A DNA stretch of 64,000 nt from Nitrospirota bacterium. GTDB taxonomy: Bacteria; Nitrospirota; UBA9217. Below the pieces are notes generated by a model that saw only the letters and a list, made by a program, of their open reading frames with translations, had not been told where the DNA came from and searched no databases. The stretch is from assembly GCA_963754875.1 (NCBI GenBank), contig CAVWHO010000001.1, forward strand, positions 14,879 through 78,878, given 5' to 3'. The position numbers and the translations under genes are program-made. How positions within the stretch are numbered: position 1 is the stretch's first letter; each line of letters opens with the position of its first letter. Shown here piece after piece: positions 4,611 through 27,269 of the stretch.

Positions 4611-4651
4611 CCAAGTTCAGTGTGCGGAAGAGTTACACTTGAAGGAGTATT

Positions 4652-5494
4652 ATGGTTTGGTTCAAAAAAGAACGACCCGAGAGCGCTGCACCGGAGCCCC
4701 CTGCAAAAAAAGTGAAGATCCCCGAGGGGCTCTGGGTAAAATGCGATAACTGCAAAGAGATCATTTACCGCAAAGAAGTCGAGAAGAACTTCAAGGTCTG
4801 TCCCAAATGCGACTATCATTTCCGCATCTCAGCGTCGGAGCGGCTGCCCTATCTTGTTGATGAAGGAAGCTTCCTCGAAGTGGAGGACGGCCTTTCCCCC
4901 CGGGATTTTCTGTCCTTTAAGGACTACAGGGACAAACTCAAGAGCAGCCGCAAGAAGACGGGGCTCAAGGACGCAGTCATCTCCGGCGAAGCAAAGATCG
5001 GCGGCAAGCAAGTTTCGATCGTGATCATGGATTTCAACTTCATGGGCGGCAGCATGGGCTCCGTGGTTGGCGAGAAGATCGCCCGCGCCGTGGAACGGGC
5101 CATTGAAAATCACACACCCTTTGTTTCGGTCGCGTCATCGGGCGGCGCCCGCATGCAAGAGGGCATCCTCTCGCTCATGCAAATGGCAAAGACATCGGCC
5201 GCCGTGGCCCGTCTCGGCCAGGCCGGGCTTCCCTTCATCTCGGTATTAACGGACCCGACCTTCGGCGGCGTTACTGCGAGCTTCGCCATGCTCGGCGACA
5301 TCATTGTTGCAGAGCCCAAGAGCCTTATCGGGTTTGCCGGGCCGCGCGTCATCGAGCAGACGATCAAACAGCAGCTGCCCGCGGGCTTCCAACGAGCAGA
5401 GTTCCAGCTCGAGCACGGCATGATCGATATGATCATCCCGCGCAAGGAGATGCGCGCGACGCTCGGCAAGGTCCTTGAATTCTTTGCCGCCTAG
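4652..5494 (+). CDS. accD: acetyl-CoA carboxylase carboxyltransferase beta subunit
   Basis: N-terminal Zn ribbon CDNCKEIIY...CPKCDYH and a carboxyltransferase core (MDFNFMGGSMGSVVGEK, SGGARMQEG). Confidence 0.95.
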   Translation: MVWFKKERPESAAPEPPAKKVKIPEGLWVKCDNCKEIIYRKEVEKNFKVCPKCDYHFRISASERLPYLVDEGSFLEVEDGLSPRDFLSFKDYRDKLKSSRKKTGLKDAVISGEAKIGGKQVSIVIMDFNFMGGSMGSVVGEKIARAVERAIENHTPFVSVASSGGARMQEGILSLMQMAKTSAAVARLGQAGLPFISVLTDPTFGGVTASFAMLGDIIVAEPKSLIGFAGPRVIEQTIKQQLPAGFQRAEFQLEHGMIDMIIPRKEMRATLGKVLEFFAA

Positions 5495-7626: not shown

Positions 7627-10275
7627 CTACCGGTCCAGCACCTCCCGTATTTTTTTCAGCAGATCGACCGGGGAAAAGGGTTTGAGGATGAGTTCCGCTT
7701 CGCGGTCCGGCACGCCGTCCTTCGTAAAGATATCCTCCGCGTAGCCGCTCATGAAAATGCACTTGACGTCAGCACTCATGGCCTTGATCTGCCGGGACGC
7801 TTCTCTCCCGTTCATCCTCGGCATGATGCCGTCCAGGATCACAAGGTGAATATTTTCTCTGTTCTCCTTGAATTTGGCAACAGCATCCGCTCCGTCGACC
7901 GCCTCGATGACGGTGTAGCCAAAATGACTGAGCGCCACCACGCTCATCTGTCTCAGAGCCTCATCGTCCTCGGCCACCAGGATGGTCTCTGCTCCGCCCT
8001 CAGGCGCGATCGGCGTTTCTTTCTTTTTACGATCAGCATGCTTGGGTTCTCGCGTTAGGGGGAGGTAGATTTTGAAGGTCGCCCCCTTTTTCAATTCACT
8101 GCTTACGTTGATGAAGCCCTCATGCTGTTTGACGATCCCATATACCATCGACAGACCGAGCCCGGTGCCTTTTCCCTGTTCTTTCGTGGTAAAGAACGGC
8201 TCAAATACCCGTGTTGCCGTCTTCTCATCCATGCCGGTGCCCGTATCGGACACTGCGACGAACGCGTATTCGCCTTCTTTGCCGTAACCGTGCGCTTCTA
8301 TGAAGTCCCTCTTCAAATTGACCTGTCTCGTGTCGATGACCAGCTTCCCGCCGTTTGGCATGGCGTCCCGGGCGTTGGTGACGAGGTTCATGATCATCTG
8401 CTCGATCTGTGCCTTGTCCGCCATGACCCAAAGGGGACCTTCGCTACAATTGATTTTCAGCGTGATATCCTCGCGGATCAGCCGGTGGAGAAATTTCTCG
8501 AACCTCTTGATCACCTCATTCAGATTGATCACGGCAAGGTTGACCACCTGCTTTCTGCTGAAGGCAAGGAGGCTCTGCGTGAGGACCGCAGCCCTCTCGG
8601 AGGATTCCAGGATTTGTTCGATATTGTGCCGAAGCGGGTCGTCTTCGTCCATCTTCATCAACGTGATGTGGGAATAGCCGACGATCGCCGAAAGGATATT
8701 GTTGAAGTCGTGTGCAACGCCGCCGGCCAGCAGGCCGATCGCTTCCATCTTCTGTGCCTGGCGGAACTGCTCCTCGAGTTTCTTGCGCTCCGAGATATTG
8801 ATGCCCACGCCGATGATATACCGCTTATCGCCGATCAGCATACGGTATCCCGTCAGATAGAACGGAACGGGCATGCCGCTTTTTGTTATCAGCGATATTT
8901 CCATAACAGTCTGTCCGGTCTCGATAACCTCCTGCATTTTGCCGGCCATCAGTTTGCGATCGGTCCAGAACAGCCGGTATACGTCCATCTGCGAGAGCTC
9001 TTGTTGGGAATAGCCGGTCACCTCTTTTTCATTGCTGTTCCAGCGGATGAGACGTCCCTCTTCGTCGCATATATAAAAAATGCCAGGGAGACTATCGATG
9101 ATCGTTTCGGAGAAGCTTTTTTCCTGCGCCAGTTGTTCGTAGGCTCGTTTGAGAGCCGAGGACCGCTCCTCGACGCGCAATTCCAGCTCATCGCGCGCCT
9201 TGACGAGTTCCGCTTCAGCCTGTTTGATGTGCGTGATGTCCCGGACGATGAGCACGTGCGCGAGGGACTGGCGGTCCTCGCCCTTCATGATGGATACGGA
9301 AAGATCAAGAATGCGTTTGTCTCCGCCCGGCTGATGGCTGGTAAGCTCTTGGTGAAGAATTGGCCCGCTCGTTTCAGATTCGGCAATGTGACCGGCAAAC
9401 GCCGTATCGTCGATGATCGCGGTAATGTGCCTCCCCAGGAAGTCCTTCTCGGCATATCCAAACAACTGCGTCGCCGCTTTGTTTACCAGGCGGATGACGC
9501 CGTCCGCGTCGAGCACGACCAGCGCGTCATTCATCGTGTCGAGGACCTTCTGCGCGGCAAATTGCGGGGTGATATCCACGAGGCGATACCGCCAGATGGT
9601 GAACGCCATGAGAGCGATCGAGGTAAGTACCGGGAAAAAGCCAAATGGATAGACGGGAATGTTCAAATCGGACAGATAATCGACGAATCCTCCGGAAGAT
9701 ATCCCGAAGGCAATCAACAGCAATCGAGTTCTTTTTCGGCGGGTGCTACCCAGTTCCGCCGCCTGATAGTCCCGGTAGTATCGAAGTACGCTCATCCCGA
9801 GAAAGCCGAGGAAAAACGCCAGGTAGGCGATGCTGAGAAGGGTAAATCGGGGACGGTACCCCCACGCGAAATGACGGACGCCGTTGATCAATAGGTCGGT
9901 GCTTACGAACAAAACGACGAAAAGGGCGGACAGAAACCAGCCTGCCCAGACACATCGCTTGTGCCGGGGATAGGACTTTAAGAACTGTACGGTAAAGTGG
10001 TAAAGGGCAGCGGGCATGAGTGGAACGCCGACATAAATTGCCCGCGCCCACCACAGGGCGGCCTGCTCATCGACGGAGCATCGGAGAAAGAACGCAGAGG
10101 TGAACCATATGACGACCGTAGACCCGAGGACGAACAGGGTTCTTCCCAGAGCGCGGTCTTCCCGCAGTGCGCCTGCAGAGGAAATAATGAAACAGGCGAC
10201 TGCCGTGGCTAGCAGGGGAACGGCGCCGGGAGAAGGCTGGTAGCTTGATGTACTGACGATCTGCTCTATCATCAC
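7627..10275 (-). CDS. hybrid sensor histidine kinase (7TM sensor, PAS x2-3, HisKA, HATPase, C-terminal receiver)
   Basis: 882 aa with a multi-TM N-terminus, PAS regions, H-box AHDFNNILSAIVGYS, G-boxes DTGTGMD and GTGLGLSMV, and receiver ILVAEDDE...ILDGIMPRMNG. Confidence 0.9.
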   Translation of the reverse strand: MMIEQIVSTSSYQPSPGAVPLLATAVACFIISSAGALREDRALGRTLFVLGSTVVIWFTSAFFLRCSVDEQAALWWARAIYVGVPLMPAALYHFTVQFLKSYPRHKRCVWAGWFLSALFVVLFVSTDLLINGVRHFAWGYRPRFTLLSIAYLAFFLGFLGMSVLRYYRDYQAAELGSTRRKRTRLLLIAFGISSGGFVDYLSDLNIPVYPFGFFPVLTSIALMAFTIWRYRLVDITPQFAAQKVLDTMNDALVVLDADGVIRLVNKAATQLFGYAEKDFLGRHITAIIDDTAFAGHIAESETSGPILHQELTSHQPGGDKRILDLSVSIMKGEDRQSLAHVLIVRDITHIKQAEAELVKARDELELRVEERSSALKRAYEQLAQEKSFSETIIDSLPGIFYICDEEGRLIRWNSNEKEVTGYSQQELSQMDVYRLFWTDRKLMAGKMQEVIETGQTVMEISLITKSGMPVPFYLTGYRMLIGDKRYIIGVGINISERKKLEEQFRQAQKMEAIGLLAGGVAHDFNNILSAIVGYSHITLMKMDEDDPLRHNIEQILESSERAAVLTQSLLAFSRKQVVNLAVINLNEVIKRFEKFLHRLIREDITLKINCSEGPLWVMADKAQIEQMIMNLVTNARDAMPNGGKLVIDTRQVNLKRDFIEAHGYGKEGEYAFVAVSDTGTGMDEKTATRVFEPFFTTKEQGKGTGLGLSMVYGIVKQHEGFINVSSELKKGATFKIYLPLTREPKHADRKKKETPIAPEGGAETILVAEDDEALRQMSVVALSHFGYTVIEAVDGADAVAKFKENRENIHLVILDGIMPRMNGREASRQIKAMSADVKCIFMSGYAEDIFTKDGVPDREAELILKPFSPVDLLKKIREVLDR

Positions 10276-10679: not shown

Positions 10680-11066
10680 TTATACATTAGTCCCAGGCCA
10701 AATGCTACGGGTTTGTGTACTACTCTGCATTAAAAGAGCAAGGTTTTCAACTAACTGGTCTTTTGTAATGAAAATATCCGCACCCGCACTTAAAAAAGCC
10801 TTATCTTGATGATCACTACTGCAGCCAATGATAAAAACGTCAGGATGGTGATGGCGCAGTAATCTGCAAACTACGTCGCCCTTCATGCCCGGCATATGAT
10901 AATCAGTAAGAATTACATCAAAATTTTGTTTTTTTGAAAGCTCGATAGCATCAAAGCCATTATGGCAGCAGAATACAACATGATCATCTGCTTCAAGCAG
11001 ACCTTGAATGGCCCCGGCGAGCAATTCATCATCGTCAACGATAAGAATTACTTTTTTTGCCTGCAT
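10680..11066 (-). CDS. single-domain response regulator (receiver)
   Basis: 128 aa with VILIVDDDE...ILTDYHMPGMKG...FITKD. The codon usage is AT-rich compared with its neighbours. Confidence 0.85.
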   Translation of the reverse strand: MQAKKVILIVDDDELLAGAIQGLLEADDHVVFCCHNGFDAIELSKKQNFDVILTDYHMPGMKGDVVCRLLRHHHPDVFIIGCSSDHQDKAFLSAGADIFITKDQLVENLALLMQSSTQTRSIWPGTNV

Positions 11067-15061: not shown

Positions 15062-15682
15062 ATGCCTCTCTGGATTGTCGCCATTCAATGGCTCTCCCGC
15101 TCGGTCCTGGGACTGCTTTTGGTGTTGTCCGTATGGTCCGTTGCCACCATGCTGCGCTGTTCCCGGCTTCTCCAAAAGGCGGACGGCTTGCCGAAGGAGT
15201 CTCCCGGGGAAATGGAAAAAGTCAGCACGTGGGTCGAAACGCGTCAATGGGACCTTTTGCGCGAGTGGGCCTCAAAGGGAGAAACCCTTCACGCAGGCAC
15301 AGCGCGTACGATTTTCAGCACCTCGTCCGACGATTCGTCCCGGGTTGATCGGGCCGTCAGAAGCTACCTGAGTCTCGAACGATCCCGCCTGGAGCAGGGG
15401 CTAACGGTACTGGCCACGCTGGGATCGAACGCCCCCTTTATCGGTCTGTTCGGGACCGTGCTCGGGATCATCCAGGCGTTTGCAGCCCTGGGAGCCCACC
15501 AAAACAATGCATCGGACATCATGGTGGGAATATCGGAGGCACTCATTGCGACCGCAATCGGGCTCTTTGTGGCCATTCCTGCTGTTATCGCGTTCAACGT
15601 CTTTACGAGGAAACTCAAGGTCCTGCTCGTGCGGTCGGAAGCGCTCAAGGACCTCTATCTTTCCAAGATCGAGAGGAGCTGA
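15062..15682 (+). CDS. exbB: MotA/TolQ/ExbB proton-channel protein
   Basis: [24 protein letters not shown] signature and three TM helices. Confidence 0.9.
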
Positions 15683-15688
15683 CCTGCC

Positions 15689-16105
15689 GTGGCATCCGAT
15701 CCCTTTTCTTCAAGCGACGACGACAGCGCACCGATTTCCGTCATCAACGTGACCCCCTTCGTGGATGTGGTCCTGGTGCTGCTCGTTATCTTCATGATCA
15801 CCGCCCCGTTCCTGATGCAGGACAGCTTCGGCATTCACCTTCCCAAAGCATCGAGCGCCGATAAGTCAATCGCCCCTAAGCTGGGAGTGGCGGTGACCCG
15901 GCAGGGACAGATCCTGCTCAACGGGATGCTCGTATCTCCCGAGCAGGTCGCCTCGCAGGTCAGGCAGGCGCTGGCTGCGAATCCCGATACACAGGCCCTT
16001 ATCAGCGCCGATGCCGATGCCAGGCACGGCGATGTCGTGAAAGCGATCGACCTGGTCAAAACCGCGGGGATGACTCACTTTGCAATCCAGATTGAAAAAC
16101 AATAA
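15689..16105 (+). CDS. exbD: ExbD/TolR biopolymer transport protein
   Basis: INVTPFVDVVLVLLVIFMIT TM helix followed by an ExbD periplasmic domain. Confidence 0.9.
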   Translation: MASDPFSSSDDDSAPISVINVTPFVDVVLVLLVIFMITAPFLMQDSFGIHLPKASSADKSIAPKLGVAVTRQGQILLNGMLVSPEQVASQVRQALAANPDTQALISADADARHGDVVKAIDLVKTAGMTHFAIQIEKQ

Positions 16106-16724
16106 TCTTGTCTACCTCGACCATCCCTGGGTCGTCTCCTCCCTGCTTCACGGCGTCCTGATTGCTGCGGTATTCGTCGTGCTGTTTATTTCCCAGTACA
16201 AACGGGTCCGTGATGTGGATATCGAGATTTACGAAGCCCCCGTGCAAGCGCCGCAGCCGGTCCGGCTCGCTGCGCCGAAGAAAGAAGAGAAACCGCGGGC
16301 ACACGAGGTCTTCGGCATCACCCCCAAGTCCGTTGCTTCTGACCAGGGAGAAACAGTGAAGGCGGGCAACACGGTTGCCAAGGCCCCGGACCAGGAACAG
16401 CTGAGGCCCGGAGACCCGGATGCGCTGCCCATACCGAGCGAAGATTACCTCGTTACCAACATGCCTGCGCTCCTGTCGGAAGTTCGGATTCCCTATCCCC
16501 GTGAATCCAAAAAGAAGGGAATCCAGGGCGCTGTTGTCATGGACCTTCTGATCGATGCTACCGGGAAAGTCCGCGAAGCTACTCTTGTCGAAGGCCCCAA
16601 CCAGGAGCTCAGCGCTGCTGCGCTTGCCGCGGCAAAGGGGTTCCGGTTCACTGCGGCACTGATCCAGGACAAACCGGTGGCGGTCCGGATACGGTATCTC
16701 TACCGCTTTGTGCTGGAGCGGTGA
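16080..16724 (+). CDS. tonB: energy transducer TonB
   Basis: TM anchor, Pro/Glu/Lys-rich linker and C-terminal YPRESKKKGIQGAVVMDLLIDATGKV domain. The TTG start is uncertain. Confidence 0.8.
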   Translation: MQSRLKNNNLVYLDHPWVVSSLLHGVLIAAVFVVLFISQYKRVRDVDIEIYEAPVQAPQPVRLAAPKKEEKPRAHEVFGITPKSVASDQGETVKAGNTVAKAPDQEQLRPGDPDALPIPSEDYLVTNMPALLSEVRIPYPRESKKKGIQGAVVMDLLIDATGKVREATLVEGPNQELSAAALAAAKGFRFTAALIQDKPVAVRIRYLYRFVLER

Positions 16725-16901: not shown

Positions 16902-16930
16902 TTGACATAGCTTTGAATCCGGCATATAGT
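16902..16930 (+). promoter_or_regulatory. near-consensus sigma70 promoter (TTGACA-N17-TATAGT) at the left edge of the accessory island
   Basis: ttgaca tagctttgaatccggca tatagt. It points into the dyad-box array and the first cassette ORF. Confidence 0.45.
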
Positions 16931-16951: not shown

Positions 16952-17080
16952 GCATATATCTGTAGATGCTTTATGACGGTTACAAAATTGACTAAAGCAT
17001 CTACCTGTATATACAAAGTCGGCATCTACAGGTAGATACATGCATATACCCGTAGATGCTTGCATCTATAAATAGATACC
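16952..17080. repeat. five 18-19 bp dyad-symmetric boxes, consensus GCATCTAC-NN-GTAGATGC
   Basis: The boxes lie at 16952-16970, 16997-17014, 17022-17039, 17042-17060 and 17062-17080. The last three are contiguous with exact 20-bp phasing. Confidence 0.7.
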
Positions 17081-17143
17081 TATTTTCGTTTCTATAATAT
17101 CTTTGTTATCTACTACTTGCTGGCAGATCAGCGGAGTCTATAA

Positions 17144-17560
17144 ATGCTCGGAATAAAAAGACCACGATTCAAGTCAAAGAGAGATGCTTTTCGAACCTTC
17201 TCTTCACATTTTTCAGCACCGTGGTTTATCGTGATACTTGGCGTTGCCGGTGTCGGTAAGACGCGTAGTGCCGAACTCGTTTCATACGAACAGGCAAAGC
17301 AATCCATTTATTTTATAATTATTGCGGCTCTGCTCTCACTTCCTTATTGGTGGTACAAAGCGTTTTGGGCGGTTTCCGCAATAATGAAAGACGACTATAC
17401 CAATGAACCAGAAACAGTGATTTGCTTACACTGTCAGACACCGTTCCCATTTACTAAAGTTAAAAGCTTCCAGTGCCCAAAGTGCAAGGGCGTGCTAGAG
17501 AATCTGGACGGTTTCTATGAAAGACATTCTGAGCTAATGAAAGAGGAACCGAAGAAGTAA
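17144..17560 (+). CDS. cassette ORF 1: two-TM protein with C-terminal zinc ribbon (CLHC...CPKC)
   Basis: 138 aa with no recognisable family. Followed 10 nt later by attC-like site 1. Confidence 0.5.
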   Translation: MLGIKRPRFKSKRDAFRTFSSHFSAPWFIVILGVAGVGKTRSAELVSYEQAKQSIYFIIIAALLSLPYWWYKAFWAVSAIMKDDYTNEPETVICLHCQTPFPFTKVKSFQCPKCKGVLENLDGFYERHSELMKEEPKK

Positions 17561-17569
17561 ACGAAGAAA

Positions 17570-17627
17570 TGATAACGAGCGGGTCGAGTGAGTCGCGAAA
17601 AGCACGCTCCTCACCCGCGCGTTGAAC
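17570..17627 (+). repeat. attC-like site 1 (tgATAAC ... GTTGAAC)
   Basis: Stems GCGGGT/ACCCGC and GAGtGAGtCG/CGCTCCTC with unpaired T residues. Ends in the core-like GTTGAAC. Confidence 0.6.
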
Positions 17628-19428
17628 CTGTAGAAAAAGTCATTTTATGCTATAATAGCGCCATCAAAACGCATTAACGAATCACCAAAACCCCTCACCC
17701 ACGGGAGGCGTATGGCGAGATACAAGGAATATGATTATTCCCAAAGCAAATTGATTCCCATCAGCTTCGACAAACAAATCCTCCCAAATACTTTCGAGCA
17801 TACTCTTCATTATCTCATCGACAACGAAATCGAGCTCTCGGTATTCGACGTTCGCTACAAAAACGATGAAACCGGTGCCCCAGCCTACGATCCCCGTGTT
17901 CTTTTAAAGATCGTCCTGTACGCCTATTCCAAGGGGATCACCTCCAGCCGAAAAATAGCCGACTGCTGCAACGATAACGTCATCTTCATGGCCCTCTCCG
18001 CCGACACCCGGCCTCACTTCACGACCATCGCCGACTTCATATCATCCCAGGACCAGCAAACGATGAAACTCTTCCTCGAAGTGCTGCTCATCTGCGACGA
18101 GATGGGCTTGATCGGAAAAGAAATGTTCGCTGTGGACGGCTGCAAGCTTCCCTCCAACGCCTCAAAGGAGTGGAGTGGCACCAAAGGAGAACTTACACAT
18201 AAAAAAGAGAAGATGGAGAAGGCCATCCGGGAGATGATAGCGAAACACAAGGAAAGAGACAAAGCCGAAACCGACAAGGCGGTTGTAGAGAAGGAAGAGC
18301 AGTACATAAGCACCCTTAAAACAAAGATCAAAAAGATCAAGACCTGGCTCGCGGAGAATGACGATAAGCCCGGCAGTAAGGGAAAACCGAGAAAGAGCAA
18401 CATAACCGACAACGAAAGCGCGAACATGAAAACCTCGCACGGCGTCATCCAAGGCTACAACGGGGTAGCCATGGTAGACAGCAAGCATCAAATCGTGGTC
18501 CACGCAGAGGCGACCGGAGATTCCGAATCCGCAATACTGAAACCCATGGTCGAAGGAACCCGGGAGAATTTCCAGGAGATCGGAAAAGAAGAAGACATCT
18601 TCAAAAAGACCAAACTGACCACCGACAGCGGCTTCCACTCCGAAAAGAACGTGGAGATGGTAATTCAGGATGGCATCGACGCATACATCGCCGACAACAA
18701 GTTCCGCCAGCGCGATCCCCGCTTTGCCGACGCCGACAAGTATAAGGAGAGGTTCAAGAAAGAACGGGCCAAACGATCAGGTGTACCCAGCATTTATCAA
18801 TCTAAAGACTTTACGGTAAGTCCGGATAAAAACTACTGCATCTGTCCTGGCGGCAAGCGTATGTACCGGGACGGCGGCAATGTGCTCATCAACGGAATGC
18901 GATTCATCAAGTTCCGGGGAAGCAAGATGAACTGTGTTCCGTGCGGACTTCGAGCAAAATGCATGAAGAATCCCGAACGAACGGTTACCCGCCAGTTCGC
19001 CTACTATACTGGGCAGAACGAACAGCAGACCAAGACCTTCACGCAGAAAATGCGGGAGAAGATAGACTCGGTAGCCGGTAAACTCATCTACGGTAGGAGA
19101 ATGGCGACAGTCGAGCCTGTCTTTGCCAATGTTCGGAGCAGTCTTGGCTTGGATCGCTTCAGTCTCAGAGGGAAAAAGAAGGTGAGCGTCCAGTGGCGGC
19201 TCTACTGCACGGTTCACAATCTATTAAAGGTGCATCGATACGGATTTGGTTTTGCAAGTACTTGAGGTAAGGCGAAGCCGAAAGGGAAATAGAATGAAGT
19301 AGCAAGCACTAATCAGGTCATCTGAACCGATAAATCAGCAGAATCAAAAAATCTTCCCCACGCCAGGAGCCACATAGGATCATATAACGGGGAGCAGACA
19401 AGCTTTTGCAAATGGGCTTTTTCTACAG
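17628..19428 (+). mobile_element. IS1182-family (IS5-superfamily) insertion sequence
   Basis: Terminal inverted repeats CTGTAGAAAAAG (17628-17639) and CTTTTTCTACAG (19417-19428) bracket the transposase ORF. No clear target duplication. It abuts the R' box of attC site 1. Confidence 0.7.
17712..19265 (+). CDS. IS1182-family DDE transposase
   Basis: 517 aa. The N-terminus MARYKEYDYSQSKLIPISFDKQILPNTFEHTLHYLID...APAYDPRVLLKIVLYAYSKGITSSRKI is typical of this transposase family. The C-terminus has a Cys-rich segment and DDE region. Confidence 0.75.
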   Translation: MARYKEYDYSQSKLIPISFDKQILPNTFEHTLHYLIDNEIELSVFDVRYKNDETGAPAYDPRVLLKIVLYAYSKGITSSRKIADCCNDNVIFMALSADTRPHFTTIADFISSQDQQTMKLFLEVLLICDEMGLIGKEMFAVDGCKLPSNASKEWSGTKGELTHKKEKMEKAIREMIAKHKERDKAETDKAVVEKEEQYISTLKTKIKKIKTWLAENDDKPGSKGKPRKSNITDNESANMKTSHGVIQGYNGVAMVDSKHQIVVHAEATGDSESAILKPMVEGTRENFQEIGKEEDIFKKTKLTTDSGFHSEKNVEMVIQDGIDAYIADNKFRQRDPRFADADKYKERFKKERAKRSGVPSIYQSKDFTVSPDKNYCICPGGKRMYRDGGNVLINGMRFIKFRGSKMNCVPCGLRAKCMKNPERTVTRQFAYYTGQNEQQTKTFTQKMREKIDSVAGKLIYGRRMATVEPVFANVRSSLGLDRFSLRGKKKVSVQWRLYCTVHNLLKVHRYGFGFAST

Positions 19429-19462
19429 ACTCGTTGTATCTTCAAGTGCTGAGGCAAAATCT

Positions 19463-20113
19463 ATGGTTTTAGACATCCAAAATCGAACCGAAAACTGGGG
19501 AACGGTTAATAAGCTCTATGGCCCCATCGCGCCTGAAGTCCTAGGATCAGTAATGAAGGCATTGGGGCAGCCACCGGGCACACTAGCGGATATCGAGCTC
19601 TTTTGGCGAGGGTATCGTGACCATTGCTACGATCAGGAAATTACGGCCCGTACGGTAAATTTCCCGTGCCTGCTCGACCGATTCCGGAGGTTATTTCCAA
19701 ACCTTAGGGCTAAAGTGAAAAGTTTTGCTGACACTAACAACGGCTCCATTCGACTTAATGATCCTTGTAACTATAGGGCAGAAGAACAAGACGGAACTGC
19801 CCTATTCGAAAATGTTCGAAACACGGAGTTCGACATAGTCATAGAAACAGAGAATGAGCTATTCATAGGTGAAGTAAAGCAGACACAGACATTTGGAGCG
19901 AAGGGTACTTTGGTCTTGCCTCACCAACTTTTAAGACAGTATGTGACCGCGTCCATTCTTTTAGATGAGCGTAGGGTATCAAAGCGAATAATACCGTTCG
20001 TTGTTGAAGAAAAAAATGGCGCGAATAAAAACGGACAAGTGCGACTCATGGAATATCTCGGCTATCTTCAACAAGGACATGTGTTCCAGTGGAAGCAACT
20101 AATTAAAACATGA
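19463..20113 (+). CDS. cassette ORF 2: PD-(D/E)xK nuclease-fold candidate
   Basis: The start is taken at MVLDIQN (ATG 19463), because the annotated upstream part of the ORF overlaps the IS end. It has the motif TEFDIVIETENELFIGEVK (D...E-x-K). Confidence 0.5.
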   Translation: MVLDIQNRTENWGTVNKLYGPIAPEVLGSVMKALGQPPGTLADIELFWRGYRDHCYDQEITARTVNFPCLLDRFRRLFPNLRAKVKSFADTNNGSIRLNDPCNYRAEEQDGTALFENVRNTEFDIVIETENELFIGEVKQTQTFGAKGTLVLPHQLLRQYVTASILLDERRVSKRIIPFVVEEKNGANKNGQVRLMEYLGYLQQGHVFQWKQLIKT

Positions 20114-20121
20114 TGTAAATT

Positions 20122-20175
20122 GTCTAACCAGCCCGTACCGCCGCGAGGAGCGCGCGGCTTACGCGTGAGTTGTAT
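20122..20175 (+). repeat. attC-like site 2 (GTCTAAC ... GTTGTAT)
   Basis: Perfect RYYYAAC box, central stem CCGcCGCG/CGCGCGG, and an R' box with one mismatch to GTTRRRY. Confidence 0.55.
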
Positions 20176-20281
20176 TTAAAATGACGGCCCAATGGAAGAG
20201 AAACAAATTGAGGCAAAACAGAATCAGATGGATCATTCCAGGCCTTACTGTCTCAGATGATATTTAACAATGGCAGACTGT

Positions 20282-21609
20282 CACTAGTGTCCCAACGTTA
20301 CAGCAATAGATTCAATTGGTTATCGCCGTCAATGGTATCGGTTTCGTAATTTGGTGAAGAAAGCACCTGCAAAATGGGCGTTTTCTCGAATGTGGTCACA
20401 CTCAAAATTTGTAGAATTGTGTAAAGGCTCCGATCCAGTTTCAATCGCTTCTTGACAATGGCCACGAGAACGTATACGGAAATGGCGATCCATATTTGGG
20501 TCTTCAGCGCGTTCTCGCTGGTGCCATAAAACGCTTTGATCCGCAGGTGCTGTTTGATCCACTTGAAGAAAAGCTCTACCTGCCAGCGGCATTTGTACAG
20601 TTTCGCGATCACGATTGCTGGCAGCGTGAAGTTGTTGGTCAGAAAAACGAATCGCTTCTTTGTTTCGACATCGAAGTATCGGATTCGCCTGAATTTCTCG
20701 GGATAGTCCAGCAGCGTGTAGAACCCGGTGACCATAATGATTTGGTCTGCACGTACTCCGGTTGACTTGTCTACTGGCCGGGAATAGAGGCGCTTGAAAA
20801 CGAAATTGCTCTTTGCGCGCGTTACGAAGAACGCGAGCGATTGATGAATCCCATAAAGCCGGGCGAAATCGACATATGCCTTGTCGAAAATATAGATGGC
20901 TCCAGGCTCGAAGACAAGATCGTCGAGCGCGTTGACATCGTGCATTTTGCCGTTGGTAATACTGATCACAACGGGGATGTTGCCCCGGAGATCCAACAGC
21001 GTATGAAGTTTTACCGCGGCTTTGGTTTTGCGAAACTTGGCCCAGGGAAATACCGAGAGACAGAGATCGATGGTCGTTGAATCGAAGGCGTAAACGGCTT
21101 GCTTCAATTCCAAACCGAAGTCTTCGTTTGTGTATAGTTCTCTGGCGATCTTGATCAGCACTTGGGCGAAATCGGCGTAGATTCTCCAGTCTCGGTTCTC
21201 GTTGGCATGGGCTAGATTGTTTCGTGAGACGGTGCTCCGGATGCCCATGTGATACAACTTCGGCTTCGCCACGCGAAGGCAGGCTTCTATGTCCCTGAGG
21301 CTTTCTCGATACGTAAGCTGGGCGAAGGCCATGCAAAGGAACTGATCCAGACAGGTAAACGTTTTCACCTTGTAGTTGCCGTTGTAACGATCGACACACA
21401 GGTGAAAGTGAAACGATGGAGCAAAATCCATGATTTGAGCAAAAACGGTTCTGCCAATGTTCACGATGAGCCATCTCCTTCCGCGGGTTAGCGGAATTAT
21501 GGCCTATCGGCAGAAATAATTTCAAATCGAAAAGTTGCGTTTGGGAAGAAACCGTCATGTTTTTCTATCTGTTAGGCGATGTTCTCAATTCAACGTTGGG
21601 ACACTAGTG
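20282..21609 (-). mobile_element. IS4-family insertion sequence with 9-bp target site duplication
   Basis: Perfect 18-bp IRs, cactagtgtcccaacgtt (20282-20299) and aacgttgggacactagtg (21592-21609). Direct repeat gcagactgt at 20273-20281 and 21610-21618. Confidence 0.9.
20298..21464 (-). CDS. IS4-family DDE transposase
   Basis: 388 aa. MNIGRTVFAQIMDFAPSFHFHLCVDRYNGNYKVKTFTCLDQFLCMAFAQLTYRESLRDIE is the typical DUF4372 plus DDE_Tnp_1 N-terminus. Confidence 0.85.
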   Translation of the reverse strand: MNIGRTVFAQIMDFAPSFHFHLCVDRYNGNYKVKTFTCLDQFLCMAFAQLTYRESLRDIEACLRVAKPKLYHMGIRSTVSRNNLAHANENRDWRIYADFAQVLIKIARELYTNEDFGLELKQAVYAFDSTTIDLCLSVFPWAKFRKTKAAVKLHTLLDLRGNIPVVISITNGKMHDVNALDDLVFEPGAIYIFDKAYVDFARLYGIHQSLAFFVTRAKSNFVFKRLYSRPVDKSTGVRADQIIMVTGFYTLLDYPEKFRRIRYFDVETKKRFVFLTNNFTLPAIVIAKLYKCRWQVELFFKWIKQHLRIKAFYGTSENALKTQIWIAISVYVLVAIVKKRLKLDRSLYTILQILSVTTFEKTPILQVLSSPNYETDTIDGDNQLNLLL

Positions 21610-21618
21610 GCAGACTGT

Positions 21619-21996
21619 ATGAATAAATTAAATTTTCATCGAATAGTGAAATGGTTTTTAGTCGTCAATGTGGCGTTTACCCTGATTTCAAAAGCACGAA
21701 TGTTAGGTATTTATTTTTCTTGGCGTTCTGATGTGTACAGCTACGCTATGGTATCGTTATTTTTCTTAGGTTGCCTTGGCAGCATAGTTGGTTTGTCACT
21801 CAATAAGTTCTGGGGTTTTATTTGTTTTTATGTCTTAATTCCGTTTGCAATATATTATCTCGGCATCTCCATAACTCCACTTGATAGGTTTTTCCCGTAC
21901 CCTTCAAAAATAACAGCAATCTATTTATTAAACGCAGTTCTCATTGCCTTCGCCAGTTGGCTTCAGATCGCACAGTGGAGAATAAAGAAAGCGTAA
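21619..21996 (+). CDS. cassette ORF 3: four-TM membrane protein
   Basis: ATG 21619 (MNKLNFHRIVKW...) lies immediately after the right-hand target duplication of the IS4 element. Followed 1 nt later by attC-like site 3. Confidence 0.5.
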   Translation: MNKLNFHRIVKWFLVVNVAFTLISKARMLGIYFSWRSDVYSYAMVSLFFLGCLGSIVGLSLNKFWGFICFYVLIPFAIYYLGISITPLDRFFPYPSKITAIYLLNAVLIAFASWLQIAQWRIKKA

Positions 21997-21997
21997 A

Positions 21998-22056
21998 TAA
22001 CAACATGCGGCTCGACTGCGACGCGCCAACGGCGGCGCGTCAGCCGCGCGTTGGGC
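21998..22056 (+). repeat. attC-like site 3 (taACAAC ... GTTGGGC)
   Basis: 59 bp. Stems GCGGCT/AGCCGC and GACGCGCC/GGCGCGTC with a bulged cgactgc on the 5' arm. Perfect GTTRRRY box. Confidence 0.6.
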
Positions 22057-22126
22057 GGTAGCGAAATCTCGGCGTGGCCATCGTGTGCAGAACGCTCGCT
22101 CGACTGCAGGCAGAGGAAAATAACGA

Positions 22127-22684
22127 ATGACGAATGACGATCGCACCAAGGTAATTCCGAGGAGAACGCCGGAATCAGCGGCCATGTTGGCAAGCGTCAA
22201 ACGAGCTATGGCGATCACCGCTAATCTCAACCGTTTGACGTTCAACGATGCGGATGAAGTCCGAGCCTTGTTCAGCGATCTCATCGGCAAGAAGGTGGAC
22301 GACAGCTTTTTATTAATCCCACCATTCTACACAACCGGCGGGGTCGATATCAGTGTCGGGCGCAATGTTTTCGTCAATCAGAACTGCACTTTTTATGACC
22401 TTGGCGGGCTCGATATTGCCGACGATGTGATGATCGGGCCGAACGTAAGCATCATCACGTCTGGCCATCCCATCGAACCTTCTCAGCGGCGTGCCTTGGT
22501 AGTCGCAAAGCCCATCGTGATTGAAAGAAACGTATGGATTGCAGCCGGCGTAACTATCATCGGTGGCGTAACAGTGGGCGAGAACTCGGTCGTTGCAGCC
22601 GGCTCAGTCGTCACCAAGGATGTCCCTCCAAATACGCTCGTCGGGGGAAATCCGGCGAAAGTCATTCGCTCGATTGGAGACTGA
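22127..22684 (+). CDS. cassette ORF 4: hexapeptide-repeat sugar/xenobiotic O-acetyltransferase (Maa/LacA family)
   Basis: 185 aa with a left-handed beta-helix repeat region (IGPNVSIITSGHP, VWIAAGVTIIGGVTVGENSVVAAGSVV, VGGNPAKVI). Confidence 0.85.
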   Translation: MTNDDRTKVIPRRTPESAAMLASVKRAMAITANLNRLTFNDADEVRALFSDLIGKKVDDSFLLIPPFYTTGGVDISVGRNVFVNQNCTFYDLGGLDIADDVMIGPNVSIITSGHPIEPSQRRALVVAKPIVIERNVWIAAGVTIIGGVTVGENSVVAAGSVVTKDVPPNTLVGGNPAKVIRSIGD

Positions 22685-22696
22685 GGAAATGGGGCC

Positions 22697-22756
22697 GCCC
22701 AACAATTCGCTGCAGCCGACCGCCTACTCGCTGGCGCTCGCAGCCGGCGGTTGAGC
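22697..22756 (+). repeat. attC-like site 4 (GCCCAAC ... GTTGAGC)
   Basis: 60 bp. Both end boxes fit RYYYAAC and GTTRRRY exactly. Inner stem GCTGCAGC/GCTcGCAGC has one extrahelical base. Confidence 0.7.
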
Positions 22757-22800
22757 TTAAGCGTTATGCAAAAAATAATTAAAAAAAAAGGATAAGGAAA

Positions 22801-23605
22801 ATGACACAGATTAAAACTCCTTTGGACGTATACAAGTTACTCCCAAAATCTAATTGTAAGCAATGCTCACTTCCGTCATGTTTGGCTTTTTCTGCAGCCG
22901 TATTAAGCGGTGAAAAGCAACTTGCGGATTGCCCGCATATCGCCGGTAGTATCGTCGGTGAGACAAATAAAATAGATATACATAAATCTACACTTCAAAA
23001 AAGAGAGGAAGCCGCCGACTCAGCTCAGAAGTCAAATCCCTTCGATAGATTTACTTACATCTGCTCAGAAGCTCGGCGCTAAAATTATTGGTGAAAAATT
23101 AGCCATTAAATGTCTCGGCAAAGATTTCTTTATAGATTCAACGGGGAATATTACATCTGAATGCCACACTCACGCCTGGATAACGCTCTTATTACTTGAT
23201 CATATTATAAGCAGTAAGGGTGATAATCCGTCCGGCCAATGGATTCCATTCAGAGAATTAAAGAAAGGAGCGGAGCGGAATCCTCTTTTTGAGCAACTGT
23301 GCGAAAAACCTCTCAAAGAGATGGCCGACACCCATACGGCTCTTTTTGAAGATCTCATTTATATTTTTAGCGGAGATAGATCGACAAATATGTTTTCATC
23401 AGATATATCACTAGTTTTGTATCCATTACCCAAAGTACCTATCTTAATTTGCTACTGGAAAGCAGAAGGCGCAATGGAAGCATCCCTTCACATCTTCTTC
23501 GATTCAACAGTTGGGAATCATTTAAATCTTCAGGCAATCTTTGATCTCGGCGTTGGTTTGTCAATGATGTTCGAGAAGGTGGTTTTTAAGCACAAACGTA
23601 ATTGA
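22801..23605 (+). pseudogene. cassette ORF 5: Fe-S-binding (CdhE/RnfB-type N-terminal Cys motif) plus DUF3786 protein, one +1 frame break near 23000-23040
   Basis: LLPKSNCKQCSLPSCLAFSAAV...CPHI is in frame 1. The DUF3786-like body (LAIKCLGKDFFIDSTG...ILICYWKAEGAMEASLHIFFDS) continues in frame 2. Confidence 0.65.
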
Positions 23606-23629
23606 AATGCGAAATAGAACAAAAAGTGC

Positions 23630-23660
23630 GTAGGTCGGGTAGAGCGCAGCGAAACCCGAC
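23630..23660 (+). repeat. REP hairpin 1 (GTAG + gtcgggt...acccgac)
   Basis: gtaggtcgggtagagcgcagcgaaacccgac. Its reverse complement recurs at 24246-24276. Confidence 0.8.
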
Positions 23661-23694
23661 ACAATGCCAATGATTGCTCAACACAAGAGGAATC

Positions 23695-24237
23695 ATGCAA
23701 TACAAAAGATCAATAGCGAAGGGAGCAACATTCTTCTTTACGATTGTGACGCACGAACGACGTAAAATCCTGTGTCATGAATCAAATGTAGCTTTATTGG
23801 GAGAAGCTTTCCAAACTGTCAAGGTGCGTCACCCGTTTACCATTGATGCTTTTGTGTTGATGCCCGATCATCTGCACTGCATATGGACCTTGCCGGAAAA
23901 TGACAGCAACTTCTCAATGCGCTGGCGCCAGATCAAGAGCCATTTCAGCAGGAAATGCCGGGATGAATTTAAGGGGCGTCAAACGGCAGCCCATCTCGGT
24001 AAAGGTGAACAAGCGATCTGGCAAAGGCGTTACTGGGAACATCAGATTCGAGATGATGGTGATTTTATCAATCACGTTGAATACATTCATTACAATCCTG
24101 TAAAACACGGGTTAACAAAATCACCTAAACTTTGGCCGCATTCGTCCTTCTATCGCTTTGTGAAACAGGGGATTTACCATAACGATTGGGGTGCGGACGC
24201 CGAGATTGTATTCAAACGTCATGTAGGGAATGAATAA
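23695..24237 (+). CDS. REP-associated tyrosine transposase (RAYT, IS200/IS605-like Y1 transposase)
   Basis: HUH motif PDHLHCIW and catalytic Tyr region VEYIHYNPVKHGL. Flanked by inverted REP copies. Confidence 0.85.
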   Translation: MQYKRSIAKGATFFFTIVTHERRKILCHESNVALLGEAFQTVKVRHPFTIDAFVLMPDHLHCIWTLPENDSNFSMRWRQIKSHFSRKCRDEFKGRQTAAHLGKGEQAIWQRRYWEHQIRDDGDFINHVEYIHYNPVKHGLTKSPKLWPHSSFYRFVKQGIYHNDWGADAEIVFKRHVGNE

Positions 24238-24245
24238 ATGAAGAT

Positions 24246-24276
24246 GTCGGGTTTCGCTGCGCTCTACCCGACCTAC
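24246..24276 (-). repeat. REP hairpin 2 (inverted copy)
   Basis: gtcgggtttcgctgcgctctacccgacctac is the exact reverse complement of REP 1. Confidence 0.8.
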
Positions 24277-24304
24277 CGACTGAAAAGGAAGGCATAAATA
24301 TCCT

Positions 24305-24724
24305 ATGAATCCATCGAAACGTATTGACCAACTGATCACAGAACTCACAGACTGGCGTGGCAAAACGTTCGCCAGCATCCGCAAGAGCATCCTCGAGGCC
24401 GACCGGGAGATAATCGAGGAATGGAAGTGGATGGGAAGCCCAGTGTGGTCTCACGACGGAATAATCGCGGTCGCCAACGCCCACAAAGAGAAGGTGAAGC
24501 TTACCTTTGCCCGCGGGGCGAGCCTCCCAGATCCTGACAAGCTCTTCAACGCGGGCCTCGAAGGCAACGCGAGACGAGCGATCGATTTTTACGAGGGCGA
24601 TAAGATTAATGAGCGTGCTCTAAAAAATCTCGTCCGTGCCGCTGTTGATTACAATCGTGCCAAATTGAAGAAGAAAGCGCCTGCGGGTACTCGAGCGAAA
24701 GTTCACAAAAGTAAAAAGACATGA
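24305..24724 (+). CDS. DUF1801 (YdhG-like) domain protein
   Basis: 139 aa. WRGKTFASIRKSILEADREIIEEWKWMGSPVWSHDGIIAV...KLTFARG is the typical DUF1801 pattern. Confidence 0.7.
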   Translation: MNPSKRIDQLITELTDWRGKTFASIRKSILEADREIIEEWKWMGSPVWSHDGIIAVANAHKEKVKLTFARGASLPDPDKLFNAGLEGNARRAIDFYEGDKINERALKNLVRAAVDYNRAKLKKKAPAGTRAKVHKSKKT

Positions 24725-24729
24725 AGTTA

Positions 24730-24839
24730 GTAGGTCGGGTAGAACGTTTTTTGTGAAACCCGACGCTTGCATGCTTGAATATTTACAACAGTAAGGAACA
24801 GAAACAATGTCGGGTTTCGCTCTGCTCTACCCGACCTAC
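24730..24839. repeat. REP 3 (+, 24730-24764) and REP 4 (-, 24809-24839) forming an inverted doublet (REPIN-like)
   Basis: Both have the same GTAG-gtcgggt...acccgac architecture. REP 3 has a variant loop. The two are separated by a 44-nt spacer. Confidence 0.75.
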
Positions 24840-24881
24840 CGAATTTCTAAGCTCCCATCCTGTTTCGAAAAAAGGGCTCTC

Positions 24882-27269
24882 ATGAAACGAAGAAAACTAA
24901 GCAGCACTCCCTCGGCAAGAGGAAAAGCTTTTCAGATCGTTATCCTCTCGTTTCTTCTGTCATTTCTGACAAGCAGTTTTACTTTTGCGGAAGAGCCTCC
25001 CGCGTTGTTGTCCGCGCCGGTTCCTACTCCTGCTCAGATTCAAGCTCCTGTTGAACTGCCAACAGTAAAAATCGAAGGCACGCTTTGGGAGCGGGGGACG
25101 AAGAAGCCGCTGTCCCAGGTCAATATCTACTGCTTTCCCGAATCAAGTCCGGAAAAGCCGATCAAGATCGTGACCAACAAAACCGGAAAATTTTCAGCCG
25201 AAATTCCTGAAGGTAAATTCCGTTGGGTCATCTCGGTCTCCGGGTACCAGCGGCTGGAACAGAATGATGAACAGCTCTTGGGAAGGGATAACAAGGCCCG
25301 GACATTCTACCTGGAAAAAGTATCCTACCTCACCTACGAAACCACGGTGTACGGCCGGACCGAGAAGCGGGATGACAAAACCGAATCGCTCAGCCAGGCC
25401 CAGTTCCTCACGGTCCCGGGAGCGAACGGCGACCCGGTAAAGGCGGTCCAGAACCTGCCCGGAGTGAATCGCACGTCGGCGTTCAGTTCCCAGATCATCA
25501 TCGAAGGGTCTTCCCCGAACGATACGCGATACAATATCGACAACCAGCCTGTGCCGATCATTTTTCATTTCGGCGGGCTTTCGTCGGTGGTCATGCCCGA
25601 AGCAGTGGATCATGTTGACTATCTTTCCGCGGGGTTCGGTCCCGAGTTCGGCCAGACCATTGCCGGCCTCGTGAATCTCACGGTAAAAGACCCGCAGACA
25701 GACCGGGACCACGGCTTCGTGTATGCGGATTTCATGAATGCCGGCGGGATGATCGAGGGGCCCCTGAACGATCACTCTTCCTATCTCGTCGGCGTGCGGC
25801 AAAGCTACATCGGTGCGGTCTTGGGCGTCGTTGCCCGGAGCAGCAAAGACAATAAGAACTTCGAGCTCACCGCGGCCCCGGACTTCAAGGACACGGTCCT
25901 GGAATATAAAAACCAGGTGAGCTCGAAGGATACCTTCAAGGTCGTCGGAGTGGGCTCACAGGACACCTTTGCCTTTCTTTTGAAGCAGCCGGCGGATCAA
26001 GACCCAAGCATTCGCGGCAATTTCAATCTTCGCACGGATTTTTTCCGCATCATTCCCGAATGGACCCACCAGTACAGCCCCGACGTTACGGGCCGCATCA
26101 GCCTGGGCACGGGAAAGGACACGACGGTCTTCGACCTGGGAGACTTCTATGCCCGCTCCGAGCAATTGGTCCTGACCGGGAGAGCCGAGCTCGAAGACCA
26201 GATCAACTCCACCTGGAAGAGCTACTGGGGCGCGGATATCCAGAAATACTGGCTGGACTATACGTACCAGCTTCCCGTCGTGTACAACCAGGGAGGGGTC
26301 TCCAATCCCATCGGCTCCGGCACGCTCACCAACGTTGCCCGCCGCTATGCGCCTGAAGCCGACGGGCTTTACTGGAGAAACGTGATTCACCCACCCGATT
26401 CGCGCTGGACCTTTCTTCCCGGCGTCCGCTACAGCTATTTCAATATGACGAAAGAATCTATCGTCGAGCCGCGCATCGGTGCGCGGTATGCCCTGGACCA
26501 CGGCTGGACGCTCCGCGCTGCCGGCGGTCTCTACAATGAAGCGCCTCCCACCGGGGACCTCGACGCGACCTATGGGAATCCCGGGTTGAAATCGCAGAGA
26601 GCGGTGCACGGCAGCGCAGGCTTTGAAAAGGACTTCCGGGACGGATCGGCCACGGGCTGGACGATCACGAACGATTTCTTTTATAAATATCTCTACGATC
26701 TCGTTGCCAGTTCCACGGCATTTTTGAGTCCGTCGCGGCCTGAGTATTACAACAATTCGGGATTCGGCCATATCTACGGCCTGGAGTTCCTGGGCAAGTT
26801 CCGGTCCCTGACCTGGGAAGGCTGGGTCTCCTATACCTATTCGCGCAGCACGAGAGGGGACAACCTGACGCCGGAGACGCTCGCTCAATACGATCAGACC
26901 CATCTGCTCACCCTGGTCGCGGACAAGGAGCTCGGCAAGAACTGGAAGATATCCACCCGCATCCGCTACGCGACAGGCAATCTATATACGCCCGTTGTGG
27001 GCAGCGTCTTCGACGTGGACAACGACGTTTACACCCCGATACGCGGCGATATCTACTCGCAGCGCATGGGCGACTTTTTCCAGGCGGACGTACGGTTCGA
27101 CAAGAAATGGGTCTACGACAAATGGATCCTCACGGGCTACCTCGACATCGAGAACGTAACGAACCGGCAGAACCCGCAGCAGATCAACTATTCGTACAAC
27201 TACCAGCAGTCGGCGACGGTCACGGGACTGCCGCTCTTCCCAACCCTGGGGGTGAAGGCGGAGTTTTGA
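24882..27269 (+). CDS. TonB-dependent outer-membrane receptor with N-terminal carboxypeptidase-regulatory-like domain
   Basis: The start is taken at MKRRKLSS (ATG 24882), because the upstream part of the ORF is REP sequence. It has a plug region (GDPVKAVQNLPGVN) and a terminal beta-strand ending in F. Confidence 0.85.
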   Translation: MKRRKLSSTPSARGKAFQIVILSFLLSFLTSSFTFAEEPPALLSAPVPTPAQIQAPVELPTVKIEGTLWERGTKKPLSQVNIYCFPESSPEKPIKIVTNKTGKFSAEIPEGKFRWVISVSGYQRLEQNDEQLLGRDNKARTFYLEKVSYLTYETTVYGRTEKRDDKTESLSQAQFLTVPGANGDPVKAVQNLPGVNRTSAFSSQIIIEGSSPNDTRYNIDNQPVPIIFHFGGLSSVVMPEAVDHVDYLSAGFGPEFGQTIAGLVNLTVKDPQTDRDHGFVYADFMNAGGMIEGPLNDHSSYLVGVRQSYIGAVLGVVARSSKDNKNFELTAAPDFKDTVLEYKNQVSSKDTFKVVGVGSQDTFAFLLKQPADQDPSIRGNFNLRTDFFRIIPEWTHQYSPDVTGRISLGTGKDTTVFDLGDFYARSEQLVLTGRAELEDQINSTWKSYWGADIQKYWLDYTYQLPVVYNQGGVSNPIGSGTLTNVARRYAPEADGLYWRNVIHPPDSRWTFLPGVRYSYFNMTKESIVEPRIGARYALDHGWTLRAAGGLYNEAPPTGDLDATYGNPGLKSQRAVHGSAGFEKDFRDGSATGWTITNDFFYKYLYDLVASSTAFLSPSRPEYYNNSGFGHIYGLEFLGKFRSLTWEGWVSYTYSRSTRGDNLTPETLAQYDQTHLLTLVADKELGKNWKISTRIRYATGNLYTPVVGSVFDVDNDVYTPIRGDIYSQRMGDFFQADVRFDKKWVYDKWILTGYLDIENVTNRQNPQQINYSYNYQQSATVTGLPLFPTLGVKAEF

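Follow-up and report, generated by a model that had tools for sequence, protein, structure and literature searches.

We analyzed a 64,000-nucleotide stretch of DNA (hereafter, the window) from a Nitrospirota bacterium (GenBank assembly GCA_963754875.1, contig CAVWHO010000001.1, positions 14,879 to 78,878 of the forward strand) and found that the region from 16.9 to 23.6 kb is very probably the cassette-bearing part of a sedentary chromosomal integron whose integrase gene, intI, has gone from the locus and whose remaining parts are decaying. Upstream, the region is bounded by exbB-exbD-tonB (15062-16724), and downstream by a TonB-dependent receptor gene (24807-27269). It contains four attC sites on the + strand, separated by gaps of 2.5, 1.9 and 0.7 kb (inserted insertion sequence (IS) elements included), and no intI was found in the 64 kb. 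Because intI is absent from the locus, the array is a CALIN in the terms of IntegronFinder, which defines this element as a cluster of attC sites lacking an integron integrase (Néron et al. 2022, PMC9024848). An earlier interpretation, made from the letters alone and referred to below as the sequence-only reading, had proposed a CALIN-type array, and its components, namely attC-type sites, units of the size of an open reading frame (ORF) and no integrase in reach, were all supported.

Four attC sites of two types

The four sites were folded as DNA, a check that the sequence-only reading had proposed for their bottom strands, and in every case the hairpin was closed by the AAC and GTT ends. The z-scores of the bottom-strand folds were -3.7, -1.6, -2.1 and -1.0 for sites 1-4, respectively, and the full-length form of site 4 folds poorly (z about 0). 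attC 1 (17570-17627, 58 nt; R'' tgATAAC, R' GTTGAAC) and attC 3 (21998-22056, 59 nt; R'' taACAAC, R' GTTGGGC) belong to a lineage-specific family, of which attC 2 (20122-20175, 54 nt; R'' GTCTAAC, R' GTTGTAT) is a diverged member, and attC 4 (22697-22769, 73 nt; R'' GCCCAAC, R' GTTATGC at 22763-22769) is of the classical class 1-cassette type. AAC and GTT occur in each of the four. The full R'' consensus RYYYAAC is found in sites 2 and 4 and the full R' consensus GTTRRRY in sites 1 and 3, and the R' box of site 4 departs from the latter at one position; the outer R-box positions are usually looser among attCs. Rfam gave no matches in the window at gathering thresholds.

To score the sites, we used a covariance model, R1, trained on 13 attCs that belong to class 1 integron arrays in plasmid records (those of aadA1, aadA2, aadB, qacL, psp, cmlA1, estX, blaVIM-2, aac(6')-29a, arr-3, aacA4, dfrA12 and dfrA27), the bottom strands of which fold in textbook fashion. 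The model is narrow, recovering the untrained gcuF attC and missing the long arr-3 attC that was partly used in training. Over the whole window, with filters off, attC 4 scored 44.9 bits (E = 6.8e-9). The next match (46656-46723, 16.1 bits, E = 0.12) has poor R boxes, lies far from the array and is probably due to chance, and a match at 10950-11009 (E = 1.3), likewise with poor R boxes, looks like chance as well. The left 25 nt of attC 4 are identical to those of the cmlA1 attC at 24 of 25 positions, the R''-spacer-L'' segment being nearly the same base for base; attC 4 further has its L'-spacer-R' arm, together with a central motif, CTCGCTG.GCGCTCGCA, in common with the attCs of estX and VIM-2. 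The spacer of attC 4 is the classical AATTC/TTAAGC. The start and the attC nature of this site had been recognized in the sequence-only reading, but its end had been drawn 13 nt short of the true end at 22769, and the GTTGAGC taken there for the core box is actually the L' arm (CGGTTG-AGC).

For the other three sites, a second model, R2, was built from sites 1 and 3 and two hairpins (2481-2540 and 3529-3589) of L017, a locus from a Nitrospirota metagenome-assembled genome (MAG). As members of the training set, attC 1 and attC 3 scored 74.1 and 80 bits, respectively. The sole further R2 match in the window was the untrained attC 2, at full length and in register (20.3 bits, E = 0.0025 in 86 kb, both strands). 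The four R2 hairpins have in common a 5' arm in which a 7-nt box with AAC at its end precedes 5 nt and three helices of 3 bp, a bulged C separating the first helix from the second and a further bulge the second from the third; a GC-rich centre, the mirror arm, and then CGCGY and GTTGRRY follow. Compensatory changes occur at 7 of their 17 pairs, a value reached by 0 of 500 shuffles. The centre of attC 3 is almost identical to that of L017 2481-2540, with arms that differ by compensatory changes, and the core of attC 1 is nearly identical to a metagenome site, L052 1284-1341. A long bulge had earlier been drawn for site 3; the family alignment instead favours 3-bp helices with single-base bulges in sites 1 and 3.

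We scanned metagenomes with a degenerate pattern of this family and obtained 120 loci, in which 61 sites passed E < 1e-6 with R2; the scores of over 55 independent metagenome sites range from 33 to 77 bits. The family is 58-60 nt long, and many of its sites stand in co-oriented arrays, spaced at approximately 0.4-1.5 kb and each directly behind the end of an ORF, the array of L082 comprising nine. Among 59 distinct sequences of the family, 93.4% of cells were paired, compared with 28-50% in slid controls, compensatory changes were found in 14 of the 17 stem pairs, and 136 double changes were observed versus 45.5 in shuffles. The observed values were matched by none of 500 shuffles on four of five measures, and by two of 500 for further pair types. 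These results indicate that the hairpin structure is under selection.

In the R boxes, all 61 sites have C7 and G74, and 59-60 of them keep the AA/TT columns. The bulged C of the top strand is also invariant (61/61); it corresponds to a bottom-strand G located 9 nt in from GTT, the same position at which the folds of the aadA1 and aadA2 attCs place an extrahelical G. Two deeper bulges follow at 4 and 8 nt further in, the deepest being mostly a bottom-strand T. All of these bulges fall on the arm that would be predicted from the orientation of the ORFs and, in the locus L060, from that of intI as well.

The family sites are associated with integrase genes elsewhere. In L060, which is part of a 198-kb contig, four of them lie upstream of intI on the opposite strand, which is the canonical divergent layout, and the encoded integrase scores 356 bits with TIGR02249 (cutoff 265) and is 43% identical to IntI1. 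L059 has the same layout, with a fragment of intI at the contig end. Model R1 also matched three family sites in intI-linked arrays (E approximately 0.003-0.011), and the two models therefore overlap. We accordingly identified sites 1-3 as attCs because their family sits in arrays beside an intI that passes TIGR02249, and because of the shared geometry and the covariation.

Two further observations concern recombinase genes beside family sites. The integrase of L060 (8791-10257) seems to begin approximately 170 codons upstream of its IntI1-like part, in an extension for which Pfam reports two stretches of Phage_int_SAM_4, an N-terminal SAM-like domain, and the ORF of L059 has the same upstream start. 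In L122 (426-3700), a tyrosine recombinase (TIGR02249, 166 bits, under the cutoff) lies between two family attCs of the same orientation, placed as if it were carried within a cassette.

In the window itself, tblastn with IntI1, XerD and the IntI of a relative revealed no tyrosine recombinase over the 64 kb, which include 17 kb upstream and 40 kb downstream of the array (all E > 0.05), and Pfam found none among the candidate window ORFs tested, which bears out what the sequence-only reading had stated. Likewise, tblastn with the L060 integrase detected no remnant of intI at the heads of the arrays of the window and of L017. In a complete integron, intI adjoins attI and is divergent from the cassettes; here, 380 bp separate the end of tonB from the attI-like core downstream of it. 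The statement that the integrase is lost extends only to this locus. At the head of the L017 array, where intI would be expected, a gene for an IS110-family transposase was observed (L017 1-870).

Cassettes, array head and decay

The array contains five ORFs of unrelated functions, all in the same orientation, as had been claimed, and the hairpins begin 9, 8, 1 and 12 nt behind the stop codons of the first four, in accordance with an earlier estimate of 1-12 nt. ORF1 (17144-17560) encodes a Zn-ribbon/transmembrane protein with no Pfam family. ORF2 (19463-20113) also has no Pfam family and contains a D...E-x-K motif; a TTG start listed for it at 19406 falls within the end of an IS element. ORF3 (ATG at 20270; 20270-20281 plus 21619-21996) encodes a protein with four transmembrane segments and is split by an IS4-family element. 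ORF4 (22127-22684; Hexapep) encodes a hexapeptide or sugar O-acetyltransferase that is closest to the maltose and galactoside O-acetyltransferases, yet scores under their cutoffs. ORF5 (22801-23605; FeS and DUF3786) is readable throughout only with a frameshift near 23010-23040, and is either a pseudogene or bears a sequencing error. PADLOC returned nothing for ORF1-4, and no record matched the exact sequences of the acetyltransferase and of the IS1182-family transposase described below.

When G|TT junctions are placed at 17103, 17621, 20169, 22050 and 22763, these genes fall into four cassettes and a remnant, all on the + strand: cassette 1 (17104-17621; 518 bp) with ORF1; cassette 2 (19429-20169; approximately 745 bp when TTGAAC at 17622-17627 is counted) with ORF2; cassette 3 (20170-22050; 544 bp without the IS element) with the reconstructed ORF3; cassette 4 (22051-22763; 713 bp) with ORF4; and a remnant of cassette 5 (22764-23620) with the frameshifted FeS and DUF3786 gene. 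With the IS elements removed, lengths of approximately 540-750 bp had been given in the sequence-only reading. Scans with both attC models found no attC downstream of ORF5, where a repetitive extragenic palindromic (REP) element comes next. The GC content of the cassettes is 39-46%, compared with 53.6% for the window, cassette 4 (55%) being the exception.

At the head of the array, the best sigma-70 match between 16.7 and 24.9 kb is a site resembling the integron promoter Pc (16902-16930, + strand; TTGACA-17-TATAGT, 11 of 12 positions). This putative promoter points into the array, and in L060 and L059 a TTGACA...TATACT is situated correspondingly, between intI and attI. It is followed by a cluster of palindromes of approximately 18 bp each (16954-17078), of the type GCATCTAC-NN-GTAGATGC, directly upstream of an attI-like core. 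Similar clusters precede the attI-like core in L082 (40-165) and L120 (2120-2285), and none does in L017 or L060. The palindromes of the three arrays are perfect or nearly so, as in GCATCTACAGGTAGATAC, GCATCTAATATTAGATGC and CATATACCTGTATATA, and their half-sites vary among arrays; they may bind the integrase or a regulator. The attI-like core itself (17089-17109, + strand) reads TCTATAATATCTTT|GTTATCT, with the presumed G|TT crossover at 17103/17104. It aligns, as a diverged copy, with the motif CAATAACT[AG]GTT[GA]G, which in L060 is found at approximately 310 bp from the start of intI and which also stands at the head of each of the arrays of L017, L082 and L120; L017 and L060 are homologous over approximately 90 nt around this motif, and positions 16960-16997 of the window are 89% identical to L017 1037-1074.

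The L017 locus was the sole relative found when representative genomes were scanned with the receptor protein (89% protein identity). It is syntenic with the window for approximately 11 kb downstream of the array, and upstream only in short segments of the head and in REPs. Its two family hairpins bound genes that are entirely different from those of the window. Further along, its cassettes include an ApeA-HEPN gene (3616-5106) and a BrnT/BrnA-like toxin-antitoxin pair (7764-8240), and genes of these kinds are typical of sedentary integrons. A comparison with sister genomes had been suggested as a check on cassette variability, with fixed syntenic genes as the outcome that would speak against an integron; the opposite was seen, since the locus, its flank and its head are kept in L017 and the cassettes all differ. 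Thus, for one relative, the same locus carries attCs of the same family and different cassettes, as in a sedentary integron. The earlier description of the lineage as one in which integrons are little described is fair, the closest genome being a Nitrospirota MAG and a survey listing two CALINs in the phylum (PMC9024848).

Further comparisons concerned the origins of individual cassettes. ORF4 is 85.9% identical at the DNA level to a sugar O-acetyltransferase gene on plasmid pRK1-2 of Cupriavidus basilensis (L138, 6001-6575), and its identity to genes of Burkholderia is 78%. The homology is confined to the ribosome-binding site and the ORF, and no attC was found beside the Cupriavidus homologue. 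Given the class 1-like attC 4 and the Burkholderiales homology, cassette 4 was probably imported from a proteobacterial cassette pool. The ORF4-Cupriavidus pair points to a transfer across phyla, and the gene without attC is a possible pre-cassette form. It was also observed that a 24-nt direct repeat (83% identity) brackets ORF4 at 22096-22119 and 22666-22689, and that the leader at the 5' side of cassette 4 is similar to the 3' end of the acetyltransferase gene itself, as though the gene had been captured together with part of a tandem paralogue.

A homologue of ORF2 with 90% identity was found in another context on two short metagenome contigs, L013 and L014, the homology beginning approximately 35 nt ahead of the ATG and reaching as far as the R'' box GTCTAAC, after which a different hairpin follows. 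Neither a clean G|TT boundary nor an attC was found upstream of it on these contigs. The more distant homologues of ORF2 in L015 (49% identity) and L016 (37%) had no attC matches and no recognisable cassette array. Among the 120 metagenome loci, no window cassette protein recurred besides the homologues of ORF2 and a 47-residue match to an FeS domain in L071.

Several elements have damaged the array. An IS1182-family element (17628-19428, + strand; inverted repeats 17628-17646 and 19410-19428) lies directly after the R' box of attC 1, and its transposase gene (17712-19265) scores 280 bits with NF033551 (cutoff 270). Its junctions read GTTGAAC|CTGTAG...CTACAG|ACTCGTTGTAT, with a target duplication of at most 2 bp (AC), and 4 nt past the element there is a second GTTGTAT, the same as the R' box of attC 2. 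An ORF of 517 aa at 49807-51360 was considered as a second copy and rejected, having no DNA similarity to this element. An IS4-family element (20282-21609, - strand) is inserted within ORF3, with inverted repeats and a 9-bp target duplication, GCAGACTGT (20273-20281 and 21610-21618); it was identified by Pfam DUF4372 and DDE_Tnp_1 and by NF033592 (259 bits). At the distal end, outside the integron, a REP-RAYT-REP unit and a DUF1801 gene between two more REPs occupy 23625-24846; the gene for the RAYT (REP-associated tyrosine transposase; 23695-24237, NF047646, 194.7 bits) has inverted REPs (GTAGGTCGGGTAGAGCGCAGCGAAACCCGACA) on both sides. The last REP extends over the start annotated for the TonB-dependent receptor ORF, and the same REP family was seen at the equivalent place in L017 (8351-8388 and 9815-9967). 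The two IS elements, the frameshifted gene and the missing terminal attC suggest relaxed selection on the array.

In sum, the array consists of a promoter-like site, palindromes, an attI-like core, four complete cassettes each ending in an attC, and a fifth gene without attC. Each cassette would once have been a circle, in which the bottom strand of the attC could fold into an imperfect hairpin with its R boxes paired through AAC and GTT, and the integrase would recognise this strand by the bulged bases on the 3' arm. Insertion of the cassette at attI, by G|TT exchange, would have been the work of an IntI tyrosine recombinase, and the upstream promoter would then have read the promoterless cassette genes. 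Three of the attCs are of the type native to this integron clade, and the fourth is of the class 1-cassette type and probably foreign. The present state is one of decay, with intI missing, the IS1182-family element at the edge of attC 1, the IS4-family element in ORF3, the frameshift in ORF5 and an overrun by REP/RAYT sequences.

Alternative interpretations

Several observations weigh against the identification of the region as the cassette side of an integron. Sites 1-3 gave no match with R1 at E < 1, the score of site 3 being 6.7 bits (E = 3.6 in 8 kb). The attC status of these sites rests on geometry, covariation and association with intI, and on no general attC model. The 'central spacer' of the family is mostly base-paired and accompanied by three bulges, rather than unpaired with two as in textbook attCs: in sites 1 and 3 and their family, this 5-nt spacer contains GCG/CGC able to pair. 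This is a deviation in detail from the unpaired spacer expected of attCs and, to our knowledge, an unpaired central spacer is not known to be essential. The homologue of ORF2 in L013 has no clean shared TTRRRY start upstream. Finally, the attI-like core of the window has diverged from the CAATAACTNGTTRG consensus and, because of this divergence, can be assigned as attI only by inference.

The failure of the class 1-derived model to score sites 1-3 also agrees with the view that the hairpins are other palindromes, such as terminators, REP-like elements or protein-binding sites, that end in AAC and GTT by chance, and so does the presence in this genome of a separate REP/RAYT system, as well as the lack of a matching Rfam family. 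None of the four hairpins has a T-run, on which ground the terminator reading was ruled out, the only terminator-like match being weak and located inside site 2. Moreover, the REPs are unrelated in sequence, the family adjoins bona fide intI in the canonical orientation, and the register and bulge position are common to the family and known attCs. Since sites 1-3 also occur together and in the same orientation with a classical attC at E = 6.8e-9, this view is very unlikely on present evidence. An intermediate possibility is that tonB and the receptor gene enclose a hot spot in which unrelated insertions have accumulated as a mosaic, only cassette 4 deriving from an integron. Site 4 alone matches the independent class 1 model, and IS and REP elements gather at the locus in both genomes. 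Integrases are reported to insert cassettes outside att sites too (bioRxiv 10.1101/2022.09.11.507474), and cassette 4 might, for example, be a single cassette at a secondary site. A mosaic is nevertheless improbable: sites 1-3 are of one family, are co-oriented and lie 1-9 nt behind stop codons, the same hairpin family bounds different genes at the L017 locus, and the array is preceded by an attI-like head homologous to one that lies beside intI.

A different question is whether the array, even if it is an integron, is a relic. It might still be live and serve as a working reservoir, its cassettes being moved in trans by an integrase encoded elsewhere in the genome. Three of the four attCs retain well-formed hairpins and the invariant bulge, the head retains a strong promoter-like site and the attI-like core, and the cassettes differ wholly from those of L017 while the flank is 88% identical, from which we infer that turnover was fairly recent. 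Cury et al. are said to have described CALINs in 2016 as potentially mobilisable in trans. However, the two IS insertions, the frameshifted gene and the missing terminal attC point to relaxed selection, full-length site 4 folds poorly, and the L017 array head also lacks intI, as do the 64 kb of the window. We therefore consider a live array possible but rather less likely than a decaying one, and interpret the region as the remains of a sedentary integron.

Beyond this locus, we tentatively suggest that the array may be a remnant of an undescribed clade of sedentary integrons in Nitrospirota that is common in soil, sediment and groundwater metagenomes, and that the two acetyltransferase genes may represent the states before and after the formation of a cassette. 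If so, the hallmarks of the clade would be an attC of 58-60 nt whose spacer is paired and whose three bulges are evenly spaced, an attI core CAATAACTNGTTRG with 18-bp palindromes ahead of it, and an integrase with an extra N-terminal domain of approximately 170 residues. The present results add a well-documented integron array to Nitrospirota, in which the arrays have a fixed location, with turnover between close relatives. The covarying attC family and the attI core could make integron finders more sensitive when applied to environmental genomes, and the acetyltransferase cassette, as a transfer between phyla, may bear on how cassettes arise. The general understanding of integrons is unchanged by these findings.

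Comparison with known systems

Sites 1-3 share with the attCs of class 1 integrons the register, the 7-nt box, the 5-nt spacer, the 3-bp helix and the G bulge of the bottom strand. They differ in their bulges, which are three single bases at 4-nt steps where the class 1 attCs have two that are 7 nt apart, and in their paired spacers (GCG/CGC) and a GC-rich centre of conserved sequence. REP elements with a RAYT resemble attCs in being short palindromes that lie between genes and recur several times at the locus. However, the REPs found here (GTAGGTCGGGTAGAGCGCAGCGAAACCCGAC) are unrelated to the attCs in sequence, have no AAC/GTT boxes, are not tied to the ends of ORFs and, unlike the attC hairpins, flank the RAYT gene as inverted pairs.

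CALINs are already a well-known kind of element (PMC9024848), of which the array described here is a further example; in the survey of complete genomes with IntegronFinder 2.0, only two were found in Nitrospirota (PMC9024848). The array is similar to other CALINs in having at least two co-oriented attCs less than 4 kb apart, no intI nearby, a chromosomal location, few cassettes of unrelated or unknown function and signs of degradation. It differs in that three of its four attCs are of a type that a model trained on class 1 sites fails to score, and in that it keeps an attI-like head and a promoter-like site, by which it resembles an integron from which intI was deleted rather than a stray piece of an array.

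In comparison with sedentary integrons, such as those of Xanthomonas and the Vibrio cholerae superintegron with its V. cholerae repeats (VCR), the array has no integrase, only four or five cassettes, one foreign attC and interruptions by IS elements. It is nevertheless like them in occupying a fixed locus among relatives, in its homogeneous, lineage-specific attCs, in the rapid turnover of cassettes between close genomes and in the presence, here in the L017 array, of defence and toxin-antitoxin cassettes.

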